A stretch of 64,000 bases of DNA from Oscillospiraceae bacterium (GTDB lineage Bacteria; Bacillota; Clostridia; Oscillospirales; CAG-272). Under the pieces are notes generated by a model that saw nothing but the letters and a program-made list of their open reading frames with translations, was not told where the DNA came from and searched no databases. Location of the stretch: assembly GCA_015064845.1 (NCBI GenBank), contig SVRL01000006.1, positions 6,865 through 70,864 of the forward strand, in the 5' to 3' direction. The position numbers and the translations under genes are program-made. Shown here piece by piece: positions 1,151-16,597 of this stretch; position 1 is the first letter of the stretch; each line of letters opens with the position of its first letter.

Positions 1151-1440
1151 AACTCCTTTCACTTACCGTATTTTTTTAGAGGTTTTAGCAACCCATTTTG
1201 AAAAGTCCCTCTATATACCGCCTTTTTTTAGCCGATTTTTAAGGGTATTTTTGAAAAATCCGAAAAATATTTTTCACCTATCGCCGTTTTTCTTCGGCTT
1301 TAGCAACCGTCAAAAATTTGTCCCTCTATTTAACATCTTTTTTCAGTGGTTTTAGCCCCCTGTTTTTTGCGATTTCTGAAAACAACAAATTTTCTTTGAT
1401 GGATTTCTGCGAGATAACGTAAAAGCTTGGTTGTTCCGCT

Positions 1441-1570
1441 TCACCTAACCCATCGTGGAAAGTGGTTTTGCAAGGTAGGTGAGAAAAATATTTTTGCGAA
1501 AATCTCATAAGACTTGATAAGCTGCTCTCCACCTAACCCATCGTGGAGAGCGATTATTCAAGGTAGGTCG
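1441..1570. repeat. Direct repeat CACCTAACCCATCGTGGA-N11-CAAGGTAGGT (2 copies), each partly self-complementary
   Basis: Copies start at 1442 and about 1530; the second forms stem CTCTCCAC/GTGGAGAG around loop CTAACCCATC. Confidence 0.8.
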
Positions 1571-1664
1571 CAAATTTTTTCAAATCTTCTCTTGCTCCCT
1601 ACAACACCGCAGATGGCAGAATTGCCAAACGGAGCGAGAAGAAAATTTGCGGCGTTAGCCGATA

Positions 1665-1700
1665 AGCAGGGTTTGGGGAAGGCACTCCCCAACAAGATCA
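1665..1700. other. Candidate oriT core
   Basis: Hairpin TTGGGGA-AGGCAC-TCCCCAA next to ATCTTGT on the minus strand, resembling MOBP nic sites (YATCCTG/Y type); lies in the non-coding gap upstream of mobC. Confidence 0.5.
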
Positions 1701-2224
1701 ACACAAAGGCGAAAATGAGCAGTAGGCGAAATTTGGCACCGTGGTAGAATCTTGCTCTAACAACTTCCGCTATCCTCTGAACGGGGATTTTTGTGATACC
1801 CCTCTACTTAACAACGGACAAAATCTGAGAAAAACTTGGTAGTGCTTTCACAATTCAACGGATATTTTTTTGCTGAATTAGGGGGTACTCCTTTGAAAAA
1901 AATTTAAAAGTTGAAAATGCCTTTCATTGTATTCGGAATTTCAGAAAGCAAAAATCAACGGCAATTCAAAAATTTCTTTGAAAAATTTTCTCTCTACTTG
2001 TTAGGACATTTGCGGGAGAAAAATCAACGGTCTGAAAAACACCTTTCACCTATTTGGAATTTCAGAGGGGTGAAATTCAACCGTTTTCAAAAATTTTTCT
2101 CCGTTCACTTATTACAGGTCTTGGCAAGGTGCGTTTTAGCTGATTTTGAAAAATTTTTTTCTTTTGGTTTCTTCCACGGCACAAAGATCGAAAATGCCAA
2201 ACATCGGAGATTATTTTCAGGCAT

Positions 2225-2260
2225 AAAAAATGCGCCCTCGATTTTTGAAACGAGAGCGCA
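2225..2260 (-). terminator. Intrinsic terminator insulating the mob promoter region
   Basis: TGCGCTCTCG-loop-CGAGGGCGCA followed by TTTTTT on the minus strand. Confidence 0.7.
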
Positions 2261-2389
2261 GCACCTGTGCGGCTATTCGGTTGTAAGGCGCATTCAAGCA
2301 TTTTTAATTATTCCCATATTAATAAATGCTTTTTGTAACACTTTAGCTACGCAGTTTTCACCGGTTTCTGTTGCTGTTGCGTAGTTGTG

Positions 2390-2430
2390 TATTGGAAATG
2401 GCAGTACTATATTTTCTGCCATTTCCAATA
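2390..2430 (-). terminator. Hairpin downstream of the ChW-M23 gene
   Basis: Perfect 15-bp stem TATTGGAAATGGCAG/CTGCCATTTCCAATA. Confidence 0.7.
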
Positions 2431-2519
2431 TAATTTGCTGTTAGAAAATTAGTTTTCAAACTTATCAAGTCAACAAGGTTTGTACATTCTTCTCTAATAA
2501 CATTAGCCTTCCAAGTATA

Positions 2520-3569
2520 TTATGGAAGTTTTTCGTTATTAATAACATACATAGGATTAAAAAATGTAATACCGCTCCTGTTCTCATACATCGAATGGCT
2601 GTTGAAGGCTTTTCTATCCGATGTGTAACCGTAATAAGAACCAGCACGAAATGTATCTGCAATTGCGAAATGGAGGTGTGCGCCAGTACTGCTACCAGTA
2701 TTTCCGCATGTTCCAATTTCGGTCCCTTTCTGTATTTTTTGTTCGGGTTTTACTTTGATGGAACCGTATTGCAAATGTCCATACATTGAATATACTTTTT
2801 TTCCACCTATAGTGTGTTCAATAACTACATAATAACCATTTCCTCTCGGATTTGATATTGTTGATGCATCTGCACCAGTTCCATTCAATCCTGTTGCTAC
2901 AACCTTACCATCGGCGGCTGCATATACGGTTGAATCTGAGGTGCTTTTAATATCGATTCCAAGATGTCCTGATTTTCCAAACGCCTGAGTGGTAATAACA
3001 TTTCCTCTCATTGGCATCTGCCATTCATCAGATATTGCATTTTTAGCTATTAATTTGACCTGAATGGCTTCCAACCTTAAAGATTTTCCCTCAGTTCCTG
3101 CTACTGCACCGTTTCTAACCCACGGCATCCAACCAATATTTTGAACATGAACACGGTATTCAACATCATAATACTTTGCAATTTCACCAGTAAGTTCTAT
3201 CTTCACTGCCTCCATGCGCAGTGATTTTCCTACTGTACCACTAATCGCATTATTTGAAGAATAATTTGTCCACCCCACATTTTGAATATGTGTGCTATAT
3301 TTTACACCGCCAGAGATACCGCTCACTTTGATTTTAATGGCTTCGCCTCTTAAAGATAGTCCTTCCGTGCCAGCTACTGTGCCATTCATACGATACGATT
3401 GCCAACCAATATTTTGAACATGCATCGAGTACTGTATTGAAGGAGTTTGTGTATTGGATGCTGCCGAAACGGGGATGGTCATAACTGTGAAGCAAGCCAT
3501 AAGGGAAACTATGGCGAGTGCGAAAGAGATGATTTTTTTGAAAGTTGAATTTTGAGTTAAAGTTTTCAT
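2520..3569 (-). CDS. Secreted M23 metallopeptidase with three clostridial hydrophobic-W (ChW) repeats
   Basis: Signal peptide ending VSA-A; three HVQNIGW...G(T/K)(E/S)..LR.EA repeats; Zn motifs HLGID and HLH intact; RBS GGAGG. Confidence 0.9.
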   Translation of the reverse strand: MKTLTQNSTFKKIISFALAIVSLMACFTVMTIPVSAASNTQTPSIQYSMHVQNIGWQSYRMNGTVAGTEGLSLRGEAIKIKVSGISGGVKYSTHIQNVGWTNYSSNNAISGTVGKSLRMEAVKIELTGEIAKYYDVEYRVHVQNIGWMPWVRNGAVAGTEGKSLRLEAIQVKLIAKNAISDEWQMPMRGNVITTQAFGKSGHLGIDIKSTSDSTVYAAADGKVVATGLNGTGADASTISNPRGNGYYVVIEHTIGGKKVYSMYGHLQYGSIKVKPEQKIQKGTEIGTCGNTGSSTGAHLHFAIADTFRAGSYYGYTSDRKAFNSHSMYENRSGITFFNPMYVINNEKLP

Positions 3570-3624
3570 GGTAATACCTCCAAAGTAAAAATTTTTTTAA
3601 TGGATTACAAAGCCGCGCGCCTTG

Positions 3625-3707
3625 CTTTGTTTTCTGACTCTATTGTACCATACTAAAATGCAAACTTCCATGCATTCATATATGTAAGTTTTCCGAAAGA
3701 GATGTAA
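3625..3707 (-). promoter_or_regulatory. Duplicated promoter/operator module, copy 1 (upstream of ChW-M23)
   Basis: Shares CATATATGTAAGTTTTCCGAAAGA(G/C)ATGTAA (3677-3707) and the extended -10/+1 block with 4649-4732. Confidence 0.85.
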
Positions 3708-3782
3708 TTTTTCACATTTCCGAATTATGATTGTACATCCATTTAAGGATTGCCTTGATCCAGGATATGTTGGGGTTGCCAA

Positions 3783-4175
3783 TTACCAGTGACCGTTTTT
3801 ATCAGGGTTAATATATCCTTCTTCTACCCATCTCTGTATATATTTTTGTTCTAAAATTTCCGATTCTGTTTTGGGAACATCAATTAAATGAAGATTGGGG
3901 TTATCTGCTATTTTTTTGCATATGGATTCTATTACCTCTTCATAAAAACTTCCTATTTCATATAAAGGAATATTTCGTCCTGCGTAGTAGTCGTCAGAAT
4001 CCGCAATTTTATATTCTTTGTCTGCGCCATTTGGCACAATGGTTACGTTCAGATAGAGATTAGGGGCTTCAAACCCCTTCTCGTTGTACGCTTGATAACG
4101 AATACTCCAGACACAAGTTGACGGGATATGAAGAATAACGGAATCTGCGTAATGGCTGTTGTATTTAATATACAT
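3783..4175 (-). CDS. Hypothetical acidic protein, 130 aa
   Basis: ORF with RBS GAGGAG; no family recognised. Confidence 0.7.
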   Translation of the reverse strand: MYIKYNSHYADSVILHIPSTCVWSIRYQAYNEKGFEAPNLYLNVTIVPNGADKEYKIADSDDYYAGRNIPLYEIGSFYEEVIESICKKIADNPNLHLIDVPKTESEILEQKYIQRWVEEGYINPDKNGHW

Positions 4176-4244
4176 AACATTGTTCTCCTCGATTTCTATG
4201 ATTATTTTATTACAACTTTTAATAGCTGATTAATTATATATTAC

Positions 4245-4586
4245 TCAATATGTAATGTTGTCCACTATCCTTTGAAAAACATTCAAATATTTTTTGTCGT
4301 TTTTCTTTTTCAGGAAATGAGATATTATAATGATCTTCGTGTTATCCACCGCGTATAAGAGCCGAATCTGGAGATTATCGGACACGCTTTTATAGACATA
4401 ATAATCGCGTGTGCGTCCGTGTATGATGTCATGTATCAGAACGTCATCGCCGAATATTTTACTTATCGGGATATTATAAGAATTGAATCTTGTTTGAAGC
4501 TTATCAATTGATTTTGAAATAACCTTTTTTGTGCTGGGATCTAATTTGAAAAAATGTTCGTCTAAAATTAAAATGTTGTTTTCCAT
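4245..4586 (-). CDS. RelE/HigB (Gp49-like) superfamily protein, putative mRNA interferase
   Basis: 113 aa; C-terminal pattern QIRLLYAVDNTKIIIISHFLKK resembles the R(I/L)LYF...IILLHGF.KK signature. Confidence 0.55.
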   Translation of the reverse strand: MENNILILDEHFFKLDPSTKKVISKSIDKLQTRFNSYNIPISKIFGDDVLIHDIIHGRTRDYYVYKSVSDNLQIRLLYAVDNTKIIIISHFLKKKNDKKYLNVFQRIVDNITY

Positions 4587-4648
4587 GTCCTATCCTTTCA
4601 TATACAGTGATGTTTGTTTTATCTTTGAATGCCGATTTATGTATACGA

Positions 4649-4732
4649 CTTCGTTTTCTGACTATAGTTTACCACATAAGAATAGGGACTTACACGTATG
4701 CATATATGTAAGTTTTCCGAAAGACATGTAAA
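4649..4732 (-). promoter_or_regulatory. Duplicated promoter/operator module, copy 2 (upstream of the RelE-like gene, back-to-back with the STAND promoter)
   Basis: 31-bp near-identical repeat at 4701-4731; palindrome CTTACA-N12-TGTAAG at 4689-4712; TGG-TAAACT extended -10. Confidence 0.85.
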
Positions 4733-4751
4733 TGTTCATGTTGTTTTTCCA

Positions 4752-4780
4752 TTGACAAAAAACTCATTTTTTCTTATAAT
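4752..4780 (+). promoter_or_regulatory. Consensus sigma-A promoter of the STAND gene
   Basis: TTGACA-17 nt-TATAAT. Confidence 0.85.
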
Positions 4781-4817
4781 TATATTAGTAATATTTTACA
4801 GAAAAAGGAGGCATTTT

Positions 4818-7394
4818 ATGTTATACTTGGAGTTTATTGAAATAATGAGTTCGTGCACAAGTATTTTGGGTCGAGAAAAATGTAGCAGATTTGACATAGA
4901 GAAATTGATTTTCGCGCCTCAAGATGACAAGGGTACATACTCGTTTAAATATAAAGGTTCAAAATCAAATGAAGTTCCGGTATATTTACCGGCATCTCAG
5001 GCTATTAGACTTATTAGTGTAAAACAAAAAGATGAAAAACTTCTGCCAATATATTTCCTTCCATCAAACTGGAAAATAGCACTAAGCCATTCCGATAATT
5101 ACCCAAGGCTTTGGCAAAATGTTGAATCTTATATTAATAAAAATACGGAAAATATACGAGAAATCAACTATGAAGGATTAGCAGGGAAATTGAGGTCAAC
5201 CGAAGAAGTGGCACTGTTCATAAATAAATATTTGAAAAATATTCCTCTTGATGATAAAAATTTTTGCATGATAGGAATTTTTATCGGCATACAAATAATT
5301 GCAAATGAAAAAGTAGTGGAAGCTCCTTCTGATAAATTAATCAAAATCTTAACGGAGAAGATATCGTCTTTTTCTGCGATGTCTGGAGCCGTTATAAAAA
5401 AAGAAAATAAAGATCAAAAACTCCTTTCATCTCCTAAACCCATTTCCAAAACGATCTACGGCAGAGATAAAATTATTGATGATGTAGCGCAACAGTTAAA
5501 AGAGAATCACGTTATTTTTCTTTATGGCATAGGCGGTATAGGAAAGACGCAAATAGCGAAGAACTATGTAAAAAAATATAGCTCAAATTATGACACAATC
5601 ATTTACGGAACATATCCAAATACGGATAACAGCAAATCTAATGACGAACCTAACGATGGCTTAAAAGAGTTGCTGCTTTCAGAAGATGTATTTGCTTTCG
5701 AACCAAAAATGAATCGAAGAGTGTTGTCGGACGGAAGTTTGGAAAATGATGATGACTACGCAGGAAGAAAACTTCAAAAGATCAAAGATTTGTCAAATGA
5801 GCGGACTCTTATCATTGTAGATAACTTTGATGTTATGAACGATAAATTACTCTCTGAATTCATAAACGGAAGATATCATTTGTTAATAACCACACGTTGT
5901 TCCTATGAAAATATGTATCCAATGATAAAAGTCAAAGAGATTGAAGATATTGACGATATCAAACAAATATTTTTCAAAAATTATCGATGTGATATTGTAA
6001 CTTGTGATGATCCTCATTTGGAAGAGTTGATTGAATTGGTAAATAGGCACACCTATACGATTGAATTAATTGCAAAACATATGTCAAATAGTGGGCAATC
6101 CACATTGGAAATGATAGATTTACTGAAAAAAGAAGGGATCATATGTTTAAACGAAGAAATTCGAAATGACGATTGCTCTACAGAGGTAGCATTTGAAAAT
6201 TTAAAGAAAATGTTTAAGATTTTCAGGCTTTCAGATGAGGAAAAGCAAATTCTTCAGTATATGTGTCTTATGCCTTTGAGCGGTGTAAAAAAGAGCGATT
6301 TTAAAAGGTGGGCAGGTTTAAAATCTCTATCAAAAGTTAATAATCTTATAGATCGGAGCTGGATTATCCAAAATACCAATGGTATTGCACTTCATCCCAT
6401 TATTCGCGATGTTGTTCGAAAACAATTACCCTTGACAAACGATAATATTGAATTTTTCATCATTAATTTTATAAATGATATGAATGATGTTCATAATACA
6501 TTGAGAAAACATCATTTGATATACAGAGAACGCAAAATTCATTTAGATATAGCAGAGACACTAATCGAAAAAATCACATCAGAAAAATTATTATATGATC
6601 AATTGAGATTTATATATGCTTACTGTGTTTTTGATACGGGCAATAGCAATCGTGCTGTCCAACTCTTTGAAGAATTGCTGCAAACTAGCAACAACTTAGC
6701 ATTCAAATTAAACTGCTATGAAAAAGTAATTCAAAATTATGTTTTGTTGGGAGAAGCTGCTATCGCTGTAGAAATTGCATTAAAAGCTTATGAAGAAGTT
6801 AAACCTTTTGCAGCGAATATAAATTCCCCAGACATAGGAAGACATTATATTTGCTTACTTCATCGTCTTATTGAAGCATATAGACTACTTGGTGATTATG
6901 AAAAATCTTTGTATTATGGAACTTTATGCTTGTCACAAAGTGATAAATTTTTCGAAATATACAAAGATGACTTGACTGCATGGACAAAATATCATATCGG
7001 GCGAACATTGGTATTGAAAGGAGAGCCTTGTGAAGAATTTCTAAAAGAAGCCATGGAAGTATTTCTATCAAATCAAGACGATTTAGCAGTTGCTAACTGT
7101 AATGATATTTTGGCATTGGTCTATAAACAAAAGGGATTATTTGTCGAAGCCTTAACGATTAATGAAGAAGCATATAAAATGCACACCCATTTGTTGGGCA
7201 ATTTTCATATCGATATTGCCAATAATCAAAAATGGCGTGGTGATATTTTCTTGAAAATGAAAAAGTTTGACGATGCTGAAAAATGTTATCAGAATGCAAT
7301 TTTAATATATAAAAATAAGAATTGTAGAATTCATGTGGAAGAAGTCATTGCCATTTTAAATTATATTAAGCATATGAAAAATTTGGAGGAATAG
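4818..7394 (+). CDS. STAND (NB-ARC-like) NTPase with C-terminal TPR array and a ~200-aa unassigned N-terminal domain
   Basis: IYGRD, Walker A GIGGIGKT, Walker B IIVDNFD, sensor LITTR, winged-helix LHPIIR, then TPR-like helices; start moved to ATG 4818 after RBS AAAGGAGG. Confidence 0.88.
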   Translation: MLYLEFIEIMSSCTSILGREKCSRFDIEKLIFAPQDDKGTYSFKYKGSKSNEVPVYLPASQAIRLISVKQKDEKLLPIYFLPSNWKIALSHSDNYPRLWQNVESYINKNTENIREINYEGLAGKLRSTEEVALFINKYLKNIPLDDKNFCMIGIFIGIQIIANEKVVEAPSDKLIKILTEKISSFSAMSGAVIKKENKDQKLLSSPKPISKTIYGRDKIIDDVAQQLKENHVIFLYGIGGIGKTQIAKNYVKKYSSNYDTIIYGTYPNTDNSKSNDEPNDGLKELLLSEDVFAFEPKMNRRVLSDGSLENDDDYAGRKLQKIKDLSNERTLIIVDNFDVMNDKLLSEFINGRYHLLITTRCSYENMYPMIKVKEIEDIDDIKQIFFKNYRCDIVTCDDPHLEELIELVNRHTYTIELIAKHMSNSGQSTLEMIDLLKKEGIICLNEEIRNDDCSTEVAFENLKKMFKIFRLSDEEKQILQYMCLMPLSGVKKSDFKRWAGLKSLSKVNNLIDRSWIIQNTNGIALHPIIRDVVRKQLPLTNDNIEFFIINFINDMNDVHNTLRKHHLIYRERKIHLDIAETLIEKITSEKLLYDQLRFIYAYCVFDTGNSNRAVQLFEELLQTSNNLAFKLNCYEKVIQNYVLLGEAAIAVEIALKAYEEVKPFAANINSPDIGRHYICLLHRLIEAYRLLGDYEKSLYYGTLCLSQSDKFFEIYKDDLTAWTKYHIGRTLVLKGEPCEEFLKEAMEVFLSNQDDLAVANCNDILALVYKQKGLFVEALTINEEAYKMHTHLLGNFHIDIANNQKWRGDIFLKMKKFDDAEKCYQNAILIYKNKNCRIHVEEVIAILNYIKHMKNLEE

Positions 7395-7465
7395 TAAAAC
7401 GTGGGACTTTTCTTAATAAAGATTGTCTCGATATTATAGGGTGTTCAATACCCATAGGAGAAAGT

Positions 7466-8287
7466 ATGGATTTTCTTATTGAAGATGGTGTTTTAGAAAA
7501 GTACCTAGGAAGTAAATCCGTTGTCGTTGTCCCGGATGGTGTACACTGCATCGGCAGAGCTGCTTTTCAAAATTGTCAAAGCATAAAAAATGTTATCGTT
7601 CCCAAAAGTGTATCATTGATTGGAGAATGGGCTTTTGCTGGATGCGAATCACTAGAGTGCGTTCAAATCATAGGAAATGCTGTACTGAAAAAAGGTTCTT
7701 TTTATAAATGTGCCAATCTGAAAGAACTGATTGCACCGAACGGATTGTCGGAAATCGAAGACTCGGCTTTTGTGGGATGCAAAAGTTTACATTCAGACCT
7801 ATTGAGCGCAATAACCTTTGAATTACATACGGTTGTTAGTATGCATAATGATGTTACTTATCCGAATGATGAAGATATTTGCATAAAAGCTTACCCATGG
7901 AAAGAGTATCAAAAAATCACAGCAATGACTTTAGATTATGCACTTATATATTCCACGGAAAAATATAATGAACTGGAAAGACCTGAAATACCTACTTTGT
8001 GGAAAAAAAGCAAGCCGATTTCCGATGATTTGATATTAGTGAAAGATAGCAGTTTTGCAGGATGTTTGGTAGAAGAAGAACGCATATATATGTACGATTA
8101 CAAGAATCCTCATATGCGTTTGGCAATTGTTCGTCTAGACGGTAAAGCCATTCGCATACGTTCTCGGGATGGTAACAACTTGCCATTTGATATGTATGAA
8201 AAAACGGATGTTATTCTAAAAAAACATTGCGAAAACGCACATTGGAGCAGGTCGGTCAATTCAATTCTCAAAACCGTTTTAAGTTGA
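7466..8287 (+). CDS. Cytoplasmic BspA-type leucine-rich-repeat protein with unassigned C-terminal domain
   Basis: IEDGVLEKY..VVVPDGVHCIGRAAFQNC and further IGxxAFxxC repeats; no signal peptide. Confidence 0.8.
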   Translation: MDFLIEDGVLEKYLGSKSVVVVPDGVHCIGRAAFQNCQSIKNVIVPKSVSLIGEWAFAGCESLECVQIIGNAVLKKGSFYKCANLKELIAPNGLSEIEDSAFVGCKSLHSDLLSAITFELHTVVSMHNDVTYPNDEDICIKAYPWKEYQKITAMTLDYALIYSTEKYNELERPEIPTLWKKSKPISDDLILVKDSSFAGCLVEEERIYMYDYKNPHMRLAIVRLDGKAIRIRSRDGNNLPFDMYEKTDVILKKHCENAHWSRSVNSILKTVLS

Positions 8288-8333
8288 AAATTTCGCACTT
8301 TGGATGTTTTAAAACATCCGAAGTGCGAAATTT
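8288..8333. terminator. 46-bp near-perfect palindrome between convergent genes (bidirectional terminator or cruciform)
   Basis: AAATTTCGCACTTTGGATGTTTT|AAAACATCCGAAGTGCGAAATTT, one mismatch. Confidence 0.75.
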
Positions 8334-8405
8334 GTATTCCGAAAAATACGCCAGATCATATTTCCATTATAATTTATAGCATTAAAAAACAAATATTAAT
8401 GATAT

Positions 8406-8963
8406 CTACCAAGATTTCAACTCTTCGTAAAATAAATTTGTTGCCGAATAGTGGATTTTGATATGTCCATAGTTAAACTGCTCTGAATAATAAATGCTTA
8501 CATCGTTAGAACCACTTTTGTCTAAAGGAAATTTTTTTCTTAGTTGAATTACTGCGTTATGAGCAATAACTTTAGCCAAAGCAATACGTTCTGCATTACT
8601 TTCCAAGTTTGGATAGCGATGTTGACAAAAATCATATGACCAAGATTGAGTAATACCAACATCATCAGCATCATATTGACTGGTCGTATGACCGTGAACT
8701 TGATATGTATCTACGCTAAATGTATAGTAAACATCTATCGTTTTAAGTGTTTTAGGACGAGATTCATTTATAATCTCAATAGCCATATTATTTACTATTT
8801 GTTCAATAGCATATTTTGCTGCAGGCGAGTTTTCAAACTGAGATATATAATCTTTTGCTAAGGATGCGTTAATTTTCCTGGGAATAGAATCTTGTGCCCA
8901 TATCGCCAAAATTAATCCGAAAATTGCTGCCATTGCACATAGAATAAAAACAAGTATTATCAT
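8406..8963 (-). CDS. Hypothetical protein with N-terminal membrane anchor, last gene of the ABC operon
   Basis: Hydrophobic MIILVFILCAMAAIFGLILAIWA; RBS AAGGAGG. Confidence 0.7.
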   Translation of the reverse strand: MIILVFILCAMAAIFGLILAIWAQDSIPRKINASLAKDYISQFENSPAAKYAIEQIVNNMAIEIINESRPKTLKTIDVYYTFSVDTYQVHGHTTSQYDADDVGITQSWSYDFCQHRYPNLESNAERIALAKVIAHNAVIQLRKKFPLDKSGSNDVSIYYSEQFNYGHIKIHYSATNLFYEELKSW

Positions 8964-9007
8964 AATAGATGCCTCCTTAAGTTATTTTTCAACAGTAAAC
9001 CTATACT

Positions 9008-10147
9008 TTATTTACTAATAACTTTTTCACTGCTCATAAGTGCGTAACCAATCAATAAGAAAAACAATCCATATATGGTTGTTGAAACTATTGTGATTAT
9101 AAAATGCGTGGCAATAGTTGTACCGCTAAAAACGGCTTTTAGGGCATTAAGCGTATTAATAATGGGAATAAAGTTGGTTGCCGTTGAGATATTGCCCGTC
9201 TCTATATACATAGCTGCACCGCCAATAATTGTAGGTAGCAAAGTGAACAGATTAATTCTCAAAGAGCCTTCTTTAACAGTTTTTGCACTCAAAGACAGCA
9301 TACTAATAACAGAAGCTGTAAAGAAGGCAAATATTCCTGTTACAATAAAAAATAATAAAACTTGATGTGCAGACATTCCAATGCCTTTAAAATCATCTTC
9401 CAATGCAAAAGAAATAAGGTATCCTCCTACCGATACCAAGGTGCTTAAACACACGAATAGGAACACCGTTACCGTCTTGGCAAAATACAAAGCCTTACGA
9501 CTTATTTTTGTTGCAAGTAGGCTCTCAAGGGAACCTCTTTCTTTTTCTCCACAGAATAAATCCAGCGCTATTCCAGATCCACCAGTCGCAATAAACATTA
9601 CAATTAGCATTGGTCCGATTACCGAAATCATAGAATTATGATTGTCATTATCGGTAATTGTTGCGACATCCTCACAAACATAATGATATTCAGAAAGAAT
9701 GTCAATACTTTCACCATGAACTGTGAGCACTTCATATAGCATTGCCGTCTTGGCAGATTCAATAGCGCTGCTGGCAATGGCAGTGGCTTTGGTGGATTTT
9801 ATGGAATTTTGGTCATAAATAATCTGAAAACCATTTTCATCATTTTTATTTACAATCAAAGAAACTTGTCCCGATTTTAACTCTGTAGCAGCATCTTCTG
9901 TCACAATTATATCAACATCGATACCATTCAAGGAAATAATTTCAGCAATCTCTTTGATTTTGCTTTCATCATTTGTTGCCAAAATGATTTGTTTTGAAAG
10001 GCTTTCATCTGCCGATGCGATCTGACGATTGTAGATATTCAGCAACAGCGGAAAAATGAAAAGCGGTAAAATCATCATTACCAAGGAGCGTTTATCTCTA
10101 AAACAATCCAACAGTTCTTTTCTCAGCACAACAAAAAAACTTTTCAC
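9008..10147 (-). CDS. ABC-2 type exporter permease (NatB-like)
   Basis: RKELLDCFRDKRSL start, GEKERGSLESLLAT motif, multiple TM helices. Confidence 0.9.
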   Translation of the reverse strand: MKSFFVVLRKELLDCFRDKRSLVMMILPLFIFPLLLNIYNRQIASADESLSKQIILATNDESKIKEIAEIISLNGIDVDIIVTEDAATELKSGQVSLIVNKNDENGFQIIYDQNSIKSTKATAIASSAIESAKTAMLYEVLTVHGESIDILSEYHYVCEDVATITDNDNHNSMISVIGPMLIVMFIATGGSGIALDLFCGEKERGSLESLLATKISRKALYFAKTVTVFLFVCLSTLVSVGGYLISFALEDDFKGIGMSAHQVLLFFIVTGIFAFFTASVISMLSLSAKTVKEGSLRINLFTLLPTIIGGAAMYIETGNISTATNFIPIINTLNALKAVFSGTTIATHFIITIVSTTIYGLFFLLIGYALMSSEKVISK

Positions 10148-10872
10148 TTTGCTTTCGTCCTTTCTCTAAAGTAGAAAAACAAGCTTGAAACACTTTTGCA
10201 ACCGGTTTTCTCCAAAAGTTCTGCTTTGGATCCTTGTCCTATAACCTTGCCCTGTTCCAAGAAGACAAGATTGTCGCAAAGAGCCATCTCTGTTGGATTA
10301 TGGGTCGACAACAGTATCGTTTTACCTTGTTTTTTACAGTGTAGTATGAAATTTTGAACATCACAGATAGAATTGATATCGAGCCCTGTGGAAGGCTCGT
10401 CCAATAAAAGTATATCGGGCGAGTGGATAATGGATTTAGCAAACGCAATCTTCTGGCGCATACCTCTTGAGAAACCGGAAACTTGACGATCAAGATACTC
10501 ATTCATTCCAAGCAATGCAGAGAGCTCCATCAGTCTTTTTTCTGAAACTGTGCGCTTCATTCCTTGCAAATCCGCAAAATAGAGAATATTTTCTTTCGCT
10601 GTCAAACGGTCATACAGAGTAATATCGCCTCCGAGGAGAATACCGATTTTTTCACGGGCTTTTTGCGGTGATTTAACAACATCAATATTATCCATCATAA
10701 TGGATCCGGAGGTTGGTTTTAACAAAGTACACATCAGCCGCATCGAAGTGCTCTTACCTGCTCCGTTAGAGCCGATTAATCCGGTGATCCTACCAGTGGG
10801 TGCGGAAAAAGAAATATTATTAACAGCGAATTTCTCGCCAAATTTTTTGCTTACATTTTTTACAGTTATCAT
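10144..10872 (-). CDS. ABC exporter ATP-binding subunit (NatA-like)
   Basis: GSNGAGKS, FSRGMRQK signature, LLLDEP; 4-bp overlap with the permease. Confidence 0.95.
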   Translation of the reverse strand: MITVKNVSKKFGEKFAVNNISFSAPTGRITGLIGSNGAGKSTSMRLMCTLLKPTSGSIMMDNIDVVKSPQKAREKIGILLGGDITLYDRLTAKENILYFADLQGMKRTVSEKRLMELSALLGMNEYLDRQVSGFSRGMRQKIAFAKSIIHSPDILLLDEPSTGLDINSICDVQNFILHCKKQGKTILLSTHNPTEMALCDNLVFLEQGKVIGQGSKAELLEKTGCKSVSSLFFYFRERTKAK

Positions 10873-10893
10873 GGTATCCTCCCGTGATATATT

Positions 10894-10924
10894 AGAGTCG
10901 GTAGCAGATTTTACTACCGACTCT
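10894..10924. promoter_or_regulatory. Hairpin between peptide B and the ABC ATPase RBS (possible attenuator)
   Basis: Perfect 11-bp stem AGAGTCGGTAG/CTACCGACTCT. Confidence 0.6.
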
Positions 10925-10941
10925 TCGATTTTGCATTATGC

Positions 10942-11022
10942 TTATTTGAGAACTGTTCTCAATACACGACAACCATTAATTACAATCCAGCATGCCATGA
11001 ACAAATTACACAAAGTAACCAT
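10942..11022 (-). CDS. Unannotated 26-aa hydrophobic peptide B, MVTLCNLFMACWIVINGCRVLRTVLK
   Basis: Manual translation; strong RBS AAAGGAGG 5 nt before ATG; below the ORF-track cutoff. Confidence 0.6.
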   Translation of the reverse strand: MVTLCNLFMACWIVINGCRVLRTVLK

Positions 11023-11059
11023 AATTGCCTCCTTTCTCACAAAAAATCAATAAATTCTG

Positions 11060-11088
11060 TTTACAAAATTTTCGCTTTGTGATAAAAT
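11060..11088 (+). promoter_or_regulatory. Sigma-A promoter firing antisense into peptide A
   Basis: TTTACA-17 nt-(TG.)TAAAAT. Confidence 0.65.
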
Positions 11089-11090
11089 GA

Positions 11091-11350
11091 AAGGTAAGAT
11101 ATACAGGGAAACGGGCATTTCCCTGTATATCGGCGATTCCAAATCGCTTTCCTTGACGGGAGAAGAATCAAAAGCATGTTCGCCAACAGTTTTATTCTCT
11201 CCCCGTCTCTTGAATCACTGCAATCACAATGGATTCAACTGATATCATCTGCAAAGCTTAATGAGCGTATAGCTTGATTGCAGTGCTACAGCGCTATAAA
11301 CGATACAGAAAGTCAAAACAAATGTAGCCATATATCGAAGCCTCCCTTCA
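11091..11350 (+). ncRNA. Candidate structured antisense RNA
   Basis: Perfect 14-bp stem 11098-11131, 6-bp stem, long stem 11155-11207, perfect 11-bp stem 11216-11285 and a CCTCC-loop hairpin at about 11337-11349; follows the + promoter. Confidence 0.55.
11245..11331 (-). CDS. Unannotated 28-aa hydrophobic peptide A, MATFVLTFCIVYSAVALQSSYTLIKLCR
   Basis: Manual translation; RBS AAGGGAGG; own promoter TCGACA-17-TATTAT at 11411-11383. Confidence 0.6.
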   Translation of the reverse strand: MATFVLTFCIVYSAVALQSSYTLIKLCR

Positions 11351-11480
11351 TGTGGATTACACCTGTGATCTAGTGTGTTTTTATAATAGCACATTTTTCT
11401 ATGCTTGTCGAGAGGATTATTAAACCATTGTTATAAACGCGAGTATGTTTGTTGTTTCTCAAAAATAATATAGTGAAAGC

Positions 11481-11533
11481 TTGTTGTTAACAAGACTGTG
11501 CTTGTTGACAACAATGTTAAATTTGTTTAAAAT
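11481..11533 (+). promoter_or_regulatory. Promoter TTGACA-17-TAAAAT overlapped by two TTGTT-N3-AACAA palindromes
   Basis: Palindromes at 11481-11493 and 11502-11514; -35 at 11505-11510, -10 at 11528-11533. Confidence 0.7.
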
Positions 11534-11550
11534 AATTGAGGAGGTTATAT

Positions 11551-12939
11551 ATGCATTATTCTTTAAATGAGATTATTGCGAGATTATCGCTTCATAAATA
11601 TTTTGAAAAAATTCAAAAGAAAGAATCCAAAAATTACAAAGAAATTCTTCTTAAAAGATTATTTGATATAGATTATTACGGTGCGCCTAGTGGACGGGAT
11701 GCATTCTTTCGCGGCAATTACAAGCATCCAGGAAATGAGGACTTCCCCTCTTTACAAAAAGAAACAGATTTAACCCAAAAAATTACTGAACTTTTTTTTG
11801 ATAATAATTATATACAAACATTATTCGAAAAAATTAAACAAAATATATGGGAGCCTCTACAACACGATACAGAGAAAATATTGTCGGAACATCGCAAAGA
11901 TATTTTCGGAGATTTTCGATATGACACTGTAACTAAAACTAATCGAATGCTGGATAACGATTTAATAAAAACAATTGAAATCTTGTTGGAATCAGAATCA
12001 AAAGACTCATTCATTTATGTCATTTTATTATTCATTTTAATTGCCATATTCCATGAAGATATTACTACTCAACCTGTTTCTATCGTATTAAAGGAAGAAA
12101 CAATAGAAAGCATTCTAAAAATTGGATTTAGCAAAAATAATTATCCTACATCCATCTCAAATACATTAAATGGATCTATAACAAACGAATATAATAAATT
12201 ATTCGTTCATCCTCAATACAAAAACTTTAAAATCTATCTTTACAACGATACAGGGAACTACACTTCCGATTTTTGTTTCGGAGAAATCCATTTTATGGAT
12301 AATGGTAATGTGACACTTAGTTATCAAAATGAAAATTCAACAGGAACAACTAAGTATTCCGGCAAAGCATATCTTTTTACCGTTAATGAATTGGTTCATA
12401 TAACTCTTGAAGACGAGGCTACACATAGAGGGGCTTTCATTTGTTTTCATTATACTGAATTTCAAAAGGGACCTAAAAAATGTTTGCTTAGAAAAGGATT
12501 ATTCATTTCAACCGGTGCTGCCTCCGAGAATTTTAGGCCGTTTGTGAAAAATATTATTTTATTACACAAAGAGCCAACACAACAAGAGTTTGTACGTGGT
12601 TTGTTAAAATGTTGCGATATGCGAAACGGAAACGAATTTATTATTATACAAAAAAACTCAGTGAACCATTTCATAGATCGACTTTATGAATTTGATTTTA
12701 TGCTTTCTCTCAGTAATTCAAAATTGCTTTTTAAACAATTTTTTGCTAAACATGAGCACAATAATTACTGTTTTGTCAAAGAAAATGAGTTCTTAGTTTT
12801 TTTAATGGAAAATTTCAAACCATTTTTAAATGAATGGGAACGCATAGAAATTATTTTGCTCCTTAAGTCATTTTCAGAATTACCTAATGCAATCTATCCC
12901 TATGCAACACCGGATCCCACGTTCCAAATTTTTCGTTAA
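11551..12939 (+). CDS. Hypothetical protein (helical N-terminus, beta-rich middle domain)
   Basis: Long AT-rich ORF; start after RBS GAGGAGG; no family recognised. Confidence 0.75.
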   Translation: MHYSLNEIIARLSLHKYFEKIQKKESKNYKEILLKRLFDIDYYGAPSGRDAFFRGNYKHPGNEDFPSLQKETDLTQKITELFFDNNYIQTLFEKIKQNIWEPLQHDTEKILSEHRKDIFGDFRYDTVTKTNRMLDNDLIKTIEILLESESKDSFIYVILLFILIAIFHEDITTQPVSIVLKEETIESILKIGFSKNNYPTSISNTLNGSITNEYNKLFVHPQYKNFKIYLYNDTGNYTSDFCFGEIHFMDNGNVTLSYQNENSTGTTKYSGKAYLFTVNELVHITLEDEATHRGAFICFHYTEFQKGPKKCLLRKGLFISTGAASENFRPFVKNIILLHKEPTQQEFVRGLLKCCDMRNGNEFIIIQKNSVNHFIDRLYEFDFMLSLSNSKLLFKQFFAKHEHNNYCFVKENEFLVFLMENFKPFLNEWERIEIILLLKSFSELPNAIYPYATPDPTFQIFR

Positions 12940-12983
12940 ATAGAATTCAAAGAGTTTAAAAGAAAACTATAAAATAAAGAATT

Positions 12984-13027
12984 AAGCAGGTAACTGAATT
13001 TGGATTTCATCCATCAGTTACCTGCTT
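12984..13027. terminator. Bidirectional terminator
   Basis: 14-bp stem AAGCAGGTAACTGA/TCAGTTACCTGCTT between convergent genes. Confidence 0.8.
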
Positions 13028-13042
13028 TTAACATTAGGTTAT

Positions 13043-13288
13043 TTATTCAATTGGCTTATATTCCGTTACTGCTTTCAAATATGCTTCGGGATCGCCGTTC
13101 AAGATAAGGTCTGCATACTCCAATGGCGCATTGTAGATCAGATAGTCAAGCTCTGACCGTTCATACATATTACGGGCAATCTCGTTCTCAACGGCAATCG
13201 TGTCAATCGCAATCATACTGCCATCGCTGAAATTAAGTTCTACACAGCAGCTATCGAAGTTATATTCACAGGATATAAGGCGTTTCAT
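13043..13288 (-). CDS. DUF6061-like protein typical of clostridial ICE termini
   Basis: CVEL.FSDGSMIAIDTIAVENE..RNMYERSELDYLIYNAPLEYADLILNGD pattern recognised from memory. Confidence 0.75.
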   Translation of the reverse strand: MKRLISCEYNFDSCCVELNFSDGSMIAIDTIAVENEIARNMYERSELDYLIYNAPLEYADLILNGDPEAYLKAVTEYKPIE

Positions 13289-13353
13289 AGGGTTTTGCCT
13301 CCAAAATTGTTTTGTTTGGAAGTAATGTAAGCGTGGGTTTTAGTGTGGTATCT

Positions 13354-13488
13354 TTAAGTTTGGGAAACTCCAGATTCCCAGCGTGAAACGGCCTGAGCGG
13401 TTACACCGAGCGCTTCAGCAAGATGATCTTGTGTGCATCCATCTCGTCGACGCAATTCTCTGATTTTAGTACCTAAGTTAAGTCGCAT
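13354..13488 (-). pseudogene. Truncated XRE-family HTH gene (44 aa)
   Basis: [44 protein letters not shown]; RBS GGAGGAG; stops where the conserved (S/Y)PD should follow. Confidence 0.85.
13361..13380. other. Candidate att junction (serine-recombinase style)
   Basis: TGGGAATCT-GG-AGTTTCCCA on the minus strand: 9-bp arms with one mismatch around a 2-bp core at 13370-13371. Confidence 0.6.
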
Positions 13489-13610
13489 AAAAACTCCTCC
13501 TTAAAATCGTTATCACCGGTGTGATTCTATTATAACGCATATTTATGAAAAAAACAATTCTCAAATAGTTGTTTGCAACTCAACCGATATTTGATTTTCG
13601 AAACAGCATA

Positions 13611-13633
13611 GAAAAACCCCGCGCGAGGCGGGG
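13611..13633 (-). terminator. Intrinsic terminator
   Basis: CCCCGC/GCGGGG stem plus TTTTTC; a sister copy lies at 14648-14670. Confidence 0.7.
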
Positions 13634-13645
13634 CGGTAAAGTCAT

Positions 13646-14464
13646 TCAGCCTATGAGATATTGAGAAACGGTACAATTCTTTTTATTTAGTACATACATT
13701 GCTGTAAGTACCATGTATGCAGCAATACCGCAATGACCGCAAATTAAATATCCTCTGTTATCCGAACGATTTTCTGCTACAAATTCAATAATACGATTTT
13801 CAGTAAACAAAAGCAAGAGCTCATTCAATCGGGATACTTCAATATTGGCTTTTTCAATAAGTGCTTGTTTTGATGTTGGAACGTCACAATTCAAAGCTAA
13901 TATTAACTTTTGGCCTTCTTCACTGCAAAGTGCCTGCATGACTTCTATCGTGTTTGAGTCGAAGGGAGAAATCTGCTTAATAAGTGATGATTTAATCACG
14001 CAAGCTACCCCGGCGTCATCCCAAATTTTTGTTCCATACGAACCAATAATTCTAAGGTTTCCTTGATTTTTACTTTCTTCTTGAATCTTTTGATTCCCGG
14101 TTTCTGCGAAATAGATACCCTTCCACATTTTCCAAAGGTCATCGCCCAGTTCTTGATGAAGATTATTACTGTATCTATCACAGTTTGCTGTTGCCCAAAT
14201 AAATTCTGTTCCAAGCTGTTCAATTTTGCTTGAAACGACATCAATATCGCCGTCAGATTCTGTTTCAAGCAGAACATCTGCCGAAATCTTATAAACATCG
14301 CTGATCGCTTTCAGATTAAAGCAATCGGGCAGACAGTCTCCCGATTCCCATTTAGAAATCGCCTGAGGAGAAACACCTACTTTTTCCGCAACATCTTCTT
14401 GAGTCATACCAAGCTTTTTTCTGTGATTGCGAAGTTTTTCGCCAAATATTTTTTGATTTAACAT
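13646..14464 (-). CDS. XRE-family HTH transcriptional regulator
   Basis: TQEDVAEKVGVSPQAISKWESGDCLPD. Confidence 0.9.
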   Translation of the reverse strand: MLNQKIFGEKLRNHRKKLGMTQEDVAEKVGVSPQAISKWESGDCLPDCFNLKAISDVYKISADVLLETESDGDIDVVSSKIEQLGTEFIWATANCDRYSNNLHQELGDDLWKMWKGIYFAETGNQKIQEESKNQGNLRIIGSYGTKIWDDAGVACVIKSSLIKQISPFDSNTIEVMQALCSEEGQKLILALNCDVPTSKQALIEKANIEVSRLNELLLLFTENRIIEFVAENRSDNRGYLICGHCGIAAYMVLTAMYVLNKKNCTVSQYLIG

Positions 14465-14647
14465 AATTTTATCCTCCGGGATGTTTTCGAGATAGCTATC
14501 TTGTGATTCTATTTTACCATATTTGAAATCAACTTACAATAGTAAGAATGTTGAGTTTAATTCCCATAATTCTACTTAGAGTTGATTTTTTAGCGGATGA
14601 TGATTTTTCAGATGAAAAAACTGTAATCAGCATCATGATTTTATATA

Positions 14648-14670
14648 GAAAAACCCCGCCGAAGCGGGGC
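14648..14670 (-). terminator. Intrinsic terminator
   Basis: CCCCGC-TTCG-GCGGGG plus TTTTTC. Confidence 0.75.
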
Positions 14671-14681
14671 AAAGATCAATT

Positions 14682-15755
14682 TTATCTGTACTTATCTAAA
14701 ACAGCTCTGTACTCGGGATTCTTGAGAAGCTCGGCTCGTCTACCACCCATAGCGTTAGTGCGATAATCAAGATTGTATTTGAAAAAGTTTTTGCTTATTG
14801 CTTCGCCATAACGATCAAAGGCGCGATTCAATGCTTCATTTTTCATTCTCATATCTTCGATTTTTTTCGTCACATACAGGTTTTTATCCATAACTGCGGT
14901 GATTTGTTCCTCCGTTCCGCCGCGATAGTATAGGTCGTTTTCCATCCTTTCGAGGAAAGACCTTGCAAGCATAAGGAAGAAGGCTTCTCCGGTTTCTTCA
15001 AATGCATTTATCATCAGATCACCGCACCGTAATGTATGTTTTGCCTTTTCCTCCATTGATAGAGAAGGATTGAAAAACACGGTTCTGCCGAGCTTATCTG
15101 CCGCAAAATCGACAAGCTCGTACATATTCTTTTGAACATGGAAATAATACTCGCTTGTGTCTTTTGCAAACAGCTGCTCGGTCTTTTGTCCGCTGGTGGT
15201 AAACCAATCAGTGAATTTTGATTTGTAAATCTCCAGTGCCTCGTCCGTTTTGCCTTCCGCATGAAGTATTTTCGCGCGCATATTCCACGCGCCAAGCCGT
15301 AGCCTTTCTTCGGTACATCCTTCCAGTATCTTTTCACAGATAGCAAGAAATTCATCTTTGTGCGCAACCAAAACAAAGGGATCATTGTCAGCCAAATCAC
15401 CGGCGATATTCCACATATAGTAGTGCATAATTCTATAATCGTTCGGATAATCGTGATATGCCTTAACAATAATTTCCCTACCTATTTCTTTATGCCTATT
15501 TTTAATATACAGCGCAACCACTTCATCAATTTCGGCTTGAACCTTTTCTTGATTATAACCCATAAGCTCATCGAGAGTTACTCCAAAGAAATAAGCCAAT
15601 GGTTGAAGAAGCGTAATGTCCGGATAAGTTTCGCCTCGTTCCCATTTGCTGACTGCCGCACAAGTAACATTCATCGCAACCGAAAGCTGTTCCTGCGTGA
15701 TGTTTTTTGTCATGCGCAACCGCTTGATATTTGCGCCAATCGTCATTTTCATCAT
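14682..15755 (-). CDS. XRE-family HTH regulator with helical (TPR-like) C-terminus
   Basis: TQEQLSVAMNVTCAAVSKWERGETYPDITLL. Confidence 0.9.
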   Translation of the reverse strand: MMKMTIGANIKRLRMTKNITQEQLSVAMNVTCAAVSKWERGETYPDITLLQPLAYFFGVTLDELMGYNQEKVQAEIDEVVALYIKNRHKEIGREIIVKAYHDYPNDYRIMHYYMWNIAGDLADNDPFVLVAHKDEFLAICEKILEGCTEERLRLGAWNMRAKILHAEGKTDEALEIYKSKFTDWFTTSGQKTEQLFAKDTSEYYFHVQKNMYELVDFAADKLGRTVFFNPSLSMEEKAKHTLRCGDLMINAFEETGEAFFLMLARSFLERMENDLYYRGGTEEQITAVMDKNLYVTKKIEDMRMKNEALNRAFDRYGEAISKNFFKYNLDYRTNAMGGRRAELLKNPEYRAVLDKYR

Positions 15756-15910
15756 GACACCTCCTGATAAAAGTAAGCCGACGTCTGCTTCTGTCTGTAT
15801 TATAGCACAAAAACAAAAGTCTTAAAAGGTATTGTCAGGAAACATAATGTTAACCACAGGTTAAAAAAATATCCCCGCCGGTACAGCAGAGATACTTTAC
15901 AATATTTCAT

Positions 15911-16597
15911 TCAAACACCGTATTTGATTTTGATTCTCCCCAATTTTTCCGAAAAAGGTTTTGCAAACAAAATCAAAAAAATCACGTTGGAAACGGCATA
16001 CAAAACCGTGTGAGGCAAAGAAGTTACGAGCTTTGCAAAATAGAGCGAGGGAATAAATTCACCCGCAAGCCAAACGGCACTCCACACGTCCATCAACAAA
16101 GAAAATAAAACGGCGGCAAGAATACCGTAAAAATACAGGAACAAACGGCTCTTTTTCAACGGGGATGCAAGAACACCCGCAAAAAATCCGATCAATCCCC
16201 AAGCCAGCATTTGAAACGGTGTCCAAGGTCCGTGTCCGAAATAAAAATTGGAGATCAGCGCGGAAAAGGAACCGACGAGAAAGCCCGCTTCCGAACCGAG
16301 AAACATACCCGAAATCACGGCAAACGCCGTCACGGGCTTGATAACGGGAAACATTCTGCCTGCCACGGAAAGCGCAATCATCACGGCAACGATAACCAAT
16401 CGGCGGTTTCCGATTTTTTTCTTTTCAAATCCGCAAAAAAACAGAAGAAGCGAACAAACTGCCACGAAAAAGGAAACGAGGGCGTGATACTGACTTTCCA
16501 CGGCAAAAATACCGAGCGCAACGATGGCAGGAATCAGAACGAACGGCAAAATCACACGCAAAATCCGACGTGCGGATGCATTTCGGATGACAATCAT
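15911..16597 (-). CDS. ECF transporter S component (cobalamin, CbrT-like)
   Basis: IKPVTAFAVISGMFLGSEAGFLVG...GPWTPFQMLAWG; ATGA overlap with the ATPase. Confidence 0.85.
   Translation of the reverse strand: MIVIRNASARRILRVILPFVLIPAIVALGIFAVESQYHALVSFFVAVCSLLLFFCGFEKKKIGNRRLVIVAVMIALSVAGRMFPVIKPVTAFAVISGMFLGSEAGFLVGSFSALISNFYFGHGPWTPFQMLAWGLIGFFAGVLASPLKKSRLFLYFYGILAAVLFSLLMDVWSAVWLAGEFIPSLYFAKLVTSLPHTVLYAVSNVIFLILFAKPFSEKLGRIKIKYGV

Follow-up and report, generated by a model that had tools for sequence, protein, structure and literature searches.

Very short hydrophobic peptide genes beside an ABC-2 exporter in gut Clostridia: a probable cargo or partner of the pump

What, if anything, is encoded in the short gap that precedes an exporter operon, and what would such a product have to do with the exporter? 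The question is raised by a 64,000-nucleotide (nt) stretch of contig SVRL01000006.1 (assembly GCA_015064845.1) of an Oscillospiraceae bacterium, here called the window, whose numbering is used throughout unless another locus is named. In it, the gene for an ATP-binding cassette (ABC) ATPase (10144-10872, minus strand) is separated by 678 nt from a divergent gene for a protein of 462 amino acids (aa; 11551-12939). An initial annotation, made from the letters of the window, had placed two tiny open reading frames (ORFs), each behind a strong ribosome-binding site, on the exporter strand of this gap, at 11331-11245 and 11022-10942, and both are present as described. The first encodes peptide A (28 aa, MATFVLTFCIVYSAVALQSSYTLIKLCR; 11245-11331, minus strand, stop codon counted) and is preceded by the ribosome-binding site GGGAGG (11341-11346, minus strand), 9 nt 5' of the ATG; the second encodes peptide B (26 aa, MVTLCNLFMACWIVINGCRVLRTVLK; 10942-11022, minus strand, stop codon counted), with AAAGGAGG (11028-11035, minus strand) 5 nt 5' of the ATG. 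The description of both peptides as hydrophobic, Cys-containing and basic at the C-terminus also stands, with the addition that neither has an acidic residue. On the comparative signal across one ABC-2 exporter clade, the micro-ORFs are judged to be real genes coupled to the exporter, and the peptide is probably the pump's cargo or partner.

Micro-ORFs across an exporter clade

A scan of the whole 2.44-megabase assembly found 135 ORFs that begin with ATG, encode 20-35 aa and follow a strong ribosome-binding site; only three of them pass a filter for hydrophobic, acid-free and basic-tailed products (Kyte-Doolittle mean of at least 0.8, no Asp or Glu, and at least two Lys or Arg among the last eight residues). 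Peptides A and B, ~300 nt apart, account for two of these; the remaining one sits within a long ORF.

At the DNA level, neither 60 relatives nor the rest of the genome contain a real match to the 678-nt gap, so the comparison was run through the permease protein encoded next to the ATPase (379 aa; 9008-10147, minus strand). The permease belongs to a clade of ~50 proteins at 43-95% identity, after which identity drops to 28%; the records are labelled Oscillospiraceae or Eubacteriales, that is, gut and rumen Clostridia. The clade is rare, with a match in 3 of 401 genomes of the family, and a scan of JGI metagenomes returned only distant NatB-like pumps (24-29%), while a scan of a genome collection gave four useful loci. 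Sixteen clade lineages were compared, including the window and L031, the permease of which is 34% identical.

An ORF of the peptide B type, encoding 24-33 aa with one hydrophobic span and a basic C-terminal tail, is found in 10 of the 16 lineages (the window, L007, L008/9, L010-12, L018/21/30, L020, L031, L032, L033 and L037). It starts 139-213 nt 5' of the ATPase ATG, is preceded by an AAAGGAG-type site, and encodes ~18-20 hydrophobic residues followed by a tail such as RRK, RRKK, KYGRK, KYWR, RRWFR or RTVLK. Among 21 outgroup ABC-2 exporters, comprising 15 pumps of the same class (27-30% permease identity) and 6 marine ones, no such ORF was found.

The peptides are alike in physical design. 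None of 12 from the window and its relatives contains Asp or Glu, the net charge ranges from +1 to +4, and the best 18-residue mean hydrophobicity (0.59-0.82 on the Eisenberg scale) is transmembrane-like, with a whole-peptide hydrophobic moment of just 0.01-0.34, corresponding to low amphipathicity. At lengths of 24-33 aa, they have neither signal nor leader ahead of the hydrophobic segment, and inspection revealed no lipobox or CAAX motifs. Searches with ten peptides returned nothing from Pfam at E <= 10 and two chance-level matches only from NCBIfam (E ~0.17), and of seven looked up in a collection of 15 billion proteins, a single 30-aa member is present, unnamed.

The peptides are poorly conserved in amino-acid sequence. 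In the closest informative pair, L018 and L010, dN, the rate of non-synonymous change, is 0.18 and dS, the synonymous rate, is 1.25 (dN/dS ~0.15), a ratio that indicates purifying coding selection on the peptide and hence that the protein itself is under selection. Conservation of the peptides upstream of exporter homologs, named as a check in the initial annotation, is seen as placement in the ten lineages and as selection in this pair.

With regard to the pump, all Pfam assignments are above cut-offs: ABC_tran (4.1e-29) for the ATPase (242 aa; ribosome-binding site GGGAGG, 10883-10878), together with ABC2_membrane_3 (5.4e-18) and ABC2_membrane_2 (1.4e-15). The best NCBIfam matches fall below cut-off; these are a DrrA-type subfamily for the ATPase and, for the permease, the ABC-permease part of a permease/CPBP-protease fusion family. 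A sequence search of the permease against solved structures found nothing, and the best fold match of its structure model (pLDDT 72) is ABCH-9C (E 4.6e-05), followed by NosY, ABCG and PmtCD. By this model, the ABC-2 pump has the type V transmembrane fold, in which an extracytoplasmic domain is placed between the first and second transmembrane segments; relatives of this fold, PmtCD among them, handle lipids and membrane-embedded peptides. Anti-phage defence models gave generic ATPase similarity only. Neighbouring genes vary among lineages, and no modification enzyme or receptor accompanies the module; micro-peptide gene, hairpin, ATPase and permease form a compact, self-contained module of gut Clostridia. 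Two distant carriers of the module (L032:1249-2541 and L037:1755-3049) have a TM2-domain protein and a Sel1-repeat protein in common upstream.

Allele exchange, loss and transcript layout

Wholesale exchange of the peptide stretch within otherwise conserved DNA was seen three times, one pair of loci being near-identical. L007 and L008 have a common neighbourhood and are mostly 97-100% identical over more than 3 kilobases, including the integrase and most of the ATPase and permease genes, but ~150 nt that carry the peptide ORF and the hairpin are just 32-42% identical (L007:3340-3500 vs L008:4120-4270), and the peptides are unrelated. In the 5' third of the ATPase gene the identity is down to 78-90%, and the differences in this gene are mostly synonymous (46 synonymous vs 20 non-synonymous codons). 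The pattern looks like a recombination tract centred on the micro-gene. An integron-like cassette, an idea that arose from the integrase beside L007 and L008, was dropped because most lineages have no integrase nearby. Between L018 and L020, the spacer is 86% identical and the ORF 58%. The exchange is sharpest in a contig from run X27, in which positions 2124-2215 of L018 are exchanged for 83 other letters with both flanks kept; the exchanged tract equals the 25-codon ORF of L018 (2130-2207) plus or minus 8 nt, with the sides bearing the ribosome-binding site and the hairpin retained.

A further case involves the window itself, where the exporter strand reads, in order, a promoter-like site, peptide A, a long, a small and a terminator-like hairpin, peptide B, a further hairpin and the ATPase ribosome-binding site. 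The first of these, the promoter-like site (TCGACA-17-TATTAT, TG-extended; 11383-11411, minus strand), has 10/12 matches, and its -10 element and the 5' leader are kept in L005 and L006, the permeases of which are 91-93% identical to that of the window. Peptide A is followed by the long hairpin with a 14-base-pair (bp) stem and a 25-nt loop (11155-11207), by the small hairpin GCGATT-TGG-AATCGC (11133-11147) and by an intrinsic-terminator-like hairpin with 15 pairs and a T-rich tail (11098-11131), all on the minus strand; the last two are common to L005 and L006, as is the hairpin between peptide B and the ATPase. At the position of peptide A, behind the same leader, L005 and L006 encode a different hydrophobic peptide of 26 aa (MAGLTGAFIFFLAASAVAGWGKTFLS), and the stem letters of the long hairpin differ yet pair, the loop being largely conserved. 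The divergent tract is wider in this case: between the window and L005, the divergence of the peptide A region extends to the N-terminus of the 462-aa gene. Taken together, replacement of peptide alleles amid conserved flanks points to selection for diversity, as in toxins, bacteriocins and signals; the pattern is directly visible in the alignments, and selection would be its cause.

Peptide B has met a different fate in these two relatives. A 48-nt deletion in L005 takes its ribosome-binding site and first 13 codons, and a separate deletion of ~60 nt together with a mutated site destroys it in L006. Given that peptide B has been deleted twice in sister elements, peptide A appears to be the copy retained in the window lineage.

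Between the micro-ORF and the ATPase gene lies a spacer of 58-83 nt, which holds a strong hairpin in 9 of the 10 lineages (-20.7 to -28.7 kcal/mol, z -2.6 to -6.0); in the window, where the hairpin (10894-10924, minus strand) has a stem of 11-13 bp, the spacer folds at -23.7 kcal/mol with z = -5.0. Counted from the stop codon, the hairpin begins 7-24 nt downstream, and 6-24 nt separate its end from the ATPase ATG; stems unrelated in sequence stand at this position in the window, L008, L032, L033, L037 and the group formed by L007, L010, L018 and L020. A small ORF with a strong site ahead of a stable hairpin, in which structure is conserved and sequence is not, would suit cis-acting leader peptides whose translation, stalling or membrane insertion controls the exporter through the hairpin, in the style of BmrB, ErmCL or MifM. 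For such a role there is a precedent in bmrB-bmrCD (PMC4191407), a short U-run follows the hairpin in the group of L007, L010, L018 and L020, and a terminator-like hairpin stands between peptides A and B. The details speak otherwise. The hairpin lies past the stop codon and not inside the ORF as in bmrB, the U-tract is absent in the window, L008, L032, L033 and L037, and the ATPase ribosome-binding site is not within the hairpin. A search for an anti-terminator, in which the ORF was paired with the 5' arm of the hairpin, stayed within the range of shuffled controls in all eight correctly scored lineages (a minor hairpin was picked in the window and L033, so the result covers 8 of the 10). Visual inspection suggested that the peptide A frame (TTTCTGTATCG) might pair with the terminator's 5' arm, an idea dropped because the L005 allele lacks this pairing. 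Moreover, the 12 peptides have a common design of transmembrane span, basic tail and absence of acidic residues, with no stalling motif, and the purifying selection in the L018/L010 pair bears on the protein. Given that pairing between ORF and 5' arm is no better than in shuffled controls, the hairpin is read as a partial terminator or RNA-stability element that would uncouple peptide and pump expression, and not as an attenuator switch. The strong hairpins reported by the initial annotation between peptide A, peptide B and the ATPase are thus where it placed them, but its alternative of a double leader-peptide attenuator is not supported.

The same annotation had taken the site above peptide A for the only clear minus-strand promoter. 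This does not hold, since TTGAGA-16-CATAAT, within the 3' end of peptide B (10935-10962, minus strand; unchanged in L005), also scores 10/12 and could, judging from its letters, serve the exporter genes on their own. Matches of this sort are frequent in DNA so rich in AT, with 24 promoter-like sites found against 15.8 +/- 4.1 expected, so that enrichment is not clear. A scan of 8000-13500 against Rfam at E <= 10 found no riboswitch or leader family, the sole matches being chance microRNA-like ones at a palindrome at 8282-8341.

Other palindromes stand 5' of the micro-ORFs themselves. A near-perfect one, ACTACATAAT-NCA-AATTATGTAGT, is found ~40-50 nt 5' of the micro-ORF ribosome-binding site in three lineages (L007:3270-3300, L008:4055-4085 and L018:2063-2090), and different palindromes occupy the same place in others, for example ACCAACAGG-N6-CCTGTTGGT in L010. 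They resemble repressor operators, and small genes of the XRE type with a helix-turn-helix (HTH) domain are near in L010 and L033.

Readings of the module and its neighbours

The favoured reading, to which a probability of roughly 0.4 is given, is that leaderless peptides enter the membrane, from which the pump extracts or exports them, and that the hairpin sets the ratio of peptide to pump. The peptide would be made without a signal sequence and would insert in the membrane of the producer with its basic tail in the cytoplasm; the co-transcribed type V exporter would then extract it from the bilayer and release it. On the model of PmtCD and of the ABC pumps that give immunity to leaderless bacteriocins, this extraction would both secrete the peptide and protect the producer. 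The hairpin, acting as a partial terminator or RNA-stability element, would let the peptide message exceed the pump message, and in the window lineage a second module, namely peptide A with its putative promoter, hairpin and terminator, stands upstream of peptide B. The turnover of alleles, the copies in tandem and the existence of pump-only genotypes are better explained by a toxin, bacteriocin or signal than by a structural subunit.

Several observations weigh against it. Six lineages (L005, L006, L013-15, L016-17, L019 and L035/36) carry the pump without an ORF of the peptide B type, from which it follows that the pump has a use without such an ORF. That relatives might keep the exporter and not the reading frames had been recognised at the outset as damaging; it is what is seen for peptide B in these six, and the contrary is seen in the ten lineages that keep the frame. 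Within the six, L005 and L006 have pump frames that are intact and full-length and retain their own peptide A, having lost peptide B independently; the other four have the pump with no micro-ORF, so that it can stand alone. In the window lineage, no separate promoter is recognisable for peptide B, which may rely on read-through at the 11131-11098 terminator; with two independent deletions in the nearest relatives in addition, peptide B in the window may be decaying. Low conservation of peptide sequence is also expected from relaxed constraint on a simple membrane anchor, uniform hydrophobicity and lack of amphipathicity are more in keeping with a resident membrane protein than with a soluble toxin that is secreted, and export would require the basic tail to cross the membrane. 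Evidence for transcription is slight as well. Contigs in three bovine-gut metatranscriptome runs represent a variant that is 96-97% identical and covers 10970-11219, retaining the start region of peptide B with one synonymous change; they extend into the diverged peptide A region and span the terminator between peptides A and B, which lends weak support to transcription across this junction, as the contigs are low-depth and without strand information and may come from DNA carry-over.

A bolder form of the favoured reading, which must be called unlikely, makes the whole a mobile module of peptide and antidote pump in gut Oscillospiraceae and related Clostridia, in which the leaderless, cationic peptide resides in the membrane, harms membranes that have no matching pump, is exported against neighbours and is replaced allele by allele. 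If true, this would be an unrecognised class of ultra-short leaderless bacteriocin, or a system of kin discrimination or addiction, and genes of fewer than 30 codons would keep it invisible to gene callers.

Of the rival explanations, the one that survives best, although still on the unlikely side of possible, is that the micro-peptide is an accessory or regulatory subunit with a single membrane span, which binds the permease or the ATPase and tunes stability, activity or substrate choice. Precedents are VraH with VraDE, KdpF with KdpABC and AcrZ with AcrB, and the peptides, too, are single-span proteins of less than 50 aa encoded with a transporter. Resident small membrane proteins typically combine transmembrane-like hydrophobicity, little amphipathicity and a positive-inside basic tail, as these peptides do; the gene holds a fixed position in the pump operon in 10 lineages, and the module requires no further gene. 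What is unexpected for a co-adapted subunit is that the peptide is replaced wholesale while the pump remains mostly 97-100% identical. Co-retention is mixed, with peptide-bearing lineages standing beside the six that have an intact pump and no B-type ORF, two of which lose B and keep A; the window has two tandem peptide genes; and a hairpin that lowers pump relative to peptide expression suggests peptide excess rather than fixed proportion.

It is improbable that peptide A alone is a type I toxin independent of the exporter, its mRNA (~11376 to 11095) being opposed by an antisense RNA from 11060-11088. Type I toxins in Firmicutes usually consist of a hydrophobic body and a basic tail, and peptide A has its own promoter-like site and terminator-like hairpin. 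In addition, its transcript is unusually structured (-93.4 kcal/mol, z = -4.6), with the ribosome-binding site and start codon within a stem, and it is faced by a TG-extended promoter-like site on the plus strand (TTTACA-17-TAAAAT; 11060-11088, 10/12), a putative driver of RNA antisense to peptide A that is kept in L005 and L006. However, the conservation of this site carries little weight, as the whole block around it is ~92% conserved, and promoter-like matches abound in such AT-rich DNA. With a start at ~10970, the metatranscriptome contigs reach past the point where the antisense RNA is predicted to begin, and they show no discrete antisense RNA; no toxin family model was matched; and peptide A agrees in design and orientation with the exporter-linked peptides, being retained with the pump in L005 and L006.

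Weakest of all, and very doubtful, is control by leader peptides, because the position of the hairpin, its pairing and the common design of the encoded peptides, as set out above, all oppose it.

Whichever role the peptide may have, these genes lie below the length cut-off of standard gene callers, and none of the ten peptides searched falls in a curated family. If the peptide is cargo, the module would add an ultra-short, very hydrophobic class to the leaderless peptide toxins or signals of anaerobic gut bacteria and, having just two parts, would be a simple means to study the extraction of membrane peptides by type V exporters; if it is a subunit, a third component may have been overlooked in many "two-gene" ABC-2 pumps. 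For both roles, the precise replacement of a 25-codon allele in conserved DNA is a clear case of diversifying micro-gene evolution.

The genes around the module add little to it. A membrane-anchored orphan gene 3' of the permease (185 aa; 8406-8963, minus strand) had been put forward in the initial annotation as an immunity candidate. It has no family match and 3 database clusters, and it is present only in the window, L038 and L005 (there cut by the contig end); as a lineage-specific orphan outside the conserved module, it was rejected as a core immunity protein. Between this gene and a convergent leucine-rich-repeat (LRR) gene (7466-8287) lies the near-perfect long palindrome at 8282-8341 that gave the Rfam matches, probably a bidirectional terminator. 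The divergent 462-aa gene belongs to a rare family of 8 clusters with a conserved C-terminal part, a variable N-terminal region of ~100 aa and one hydrophobic span (residues ~154-168). It gave no HTH or other family match, and its structure model is poor (pLDDT 56), the C-terminal part yielding weak lipocalin-like matches with E of at least 0.02. The gene is absent from six other pump-carrying genomes, five of which have the micro-ORF, and on this ground and for want of a family match it was rejected as a receptor, regulator or processing enzyme. A 14-bp inverted repeat (TTGTTGTTAACAAG...CTTGTTGACAACAA, 11481-11514), operator-like in appearance, lies 5' of the 462-aa gene and overlaps the best plus-strand promoter-like site (11505-11533, 11/12).

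A plus-strand ORF of 117 aa (10700-11053), probably spurious, covers the ATPase start and the whole of peptide B in antisense and would hide the latter from ORF-based annotation. In the window, the operon is part of a low-GC stretch (30-40% over ~1000-16000 vs 43-50% beyond), which also carries STAND-like, LRR and HTH genes beside the pump. In L005 and L006, the same block, made up of a truncated HTH gene, DUF6061, a 474-aa gene, peptides and pump, is found in two different chromosomal contexts, which fits a mobile element.

Comparison with known systems

Phenol-soluble modulins, exported by PmtABCD, are the system with which the initial annotation compared the locus. Like them, the peptides are leaderless, 20-30 aa long and devoid of a signal sequence, and the fold class of the pump matches. 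The association of a leaderless peptide with an exporter, found in 10 of 16 lineages and in 0 of 21 outgroups, is upheld, whereas the likeness to modulins is not: the peptides are transmembrane-like and not amphipathic, and on the PmtA model the pump reaches 109.6 bits, far short of the cut-off of 350. PmtABCD consists of two ATPases and two small permeases, unlike the single ATPase and single 379-aa permease with an outer domain found here. The psm genes lie away from the pump operon, whereas the peptide gene here is in it, with hypervariable alleles. For Pmt, an ABC-2 (type V) pump, removal of hydrophobic peptides from the membrane and protection of the producer have been proposed (PMC9974410, PMC7527219); the more hydrophobic peptides are handled by PmtCD, with the membrane as the proposed starting point of their export (PMC9974410).

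Leaderless bacteriocins of class IId, such as enterocin L50/DD14, aureocin A70 and LsbB with LmrB, are likewise made in active form without a leader, and an adjacent ABC transporter gives export or immunity (PMC10598978, PMC7332713). Tandem peptide genes, pump-only genotypes and loci that are often on mobile DNA are further points in common. Known members of the class are, however, longer (30-55 aa), soluble, amphipathic and rich in Lys and Trp; the peptides described here match no family model tried.

Pheromone precursors of Firmicutes such as SHP, ComS and PrgQ/iCF10, with PptAB, are also leaderless hydrophobic peptides of 17-35 aa served by an ABC-2-type exporter. In prgQ, the peptide gene is followed by a terminator that gates downstream genes, and it is opposed by an antisense RNA. 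The polarity is reversed, in that these pheromones have a basic N-terminus and a hydrophobic C-terminus; an adjacent HTH receptor of the Rgg or PrgX type is absent here, and the pump has no EcsB-type permease match in Pfam.

The small partners of transporters, VraH of VraDE, KdpF of KdpABC and AcrZ of AcrB, resemble the micro-peptides in being single transmembrane spans of less than 50 aa encoded with a transporter. Partners of this type are conserved in sequence within a family and are not known to be replaced by unrelated alleles or to have a strong hairpin before the pump genes; here, in contrast, unrelated alleles replace the peptide, and a strong hairpin separates it from the pump genes. 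Insertion without a signal peptide has been described for 27-aa membrane proteins of the YohP type (PMC7549839).

BmrB and bmrCD of Bacillus subtilis have in common with the module a small ORF immediately upstream of ABC exporter genes with stem-loops in between, co-transcribed in the case of bmrB. There, a terminator lies inside the leader ORF and three alternative stem-loops can form (PMC4191407); here, a single hairpin lies beyond the stop codon, alternative pairing does not rise above shuffled controls, and the physical design of the peptide is conserved. A leaderless peptide with a dedicated ABC exporter is a known kind of system, and the module is read as an unannotated and hypervariable form of it in gut Clostridia.

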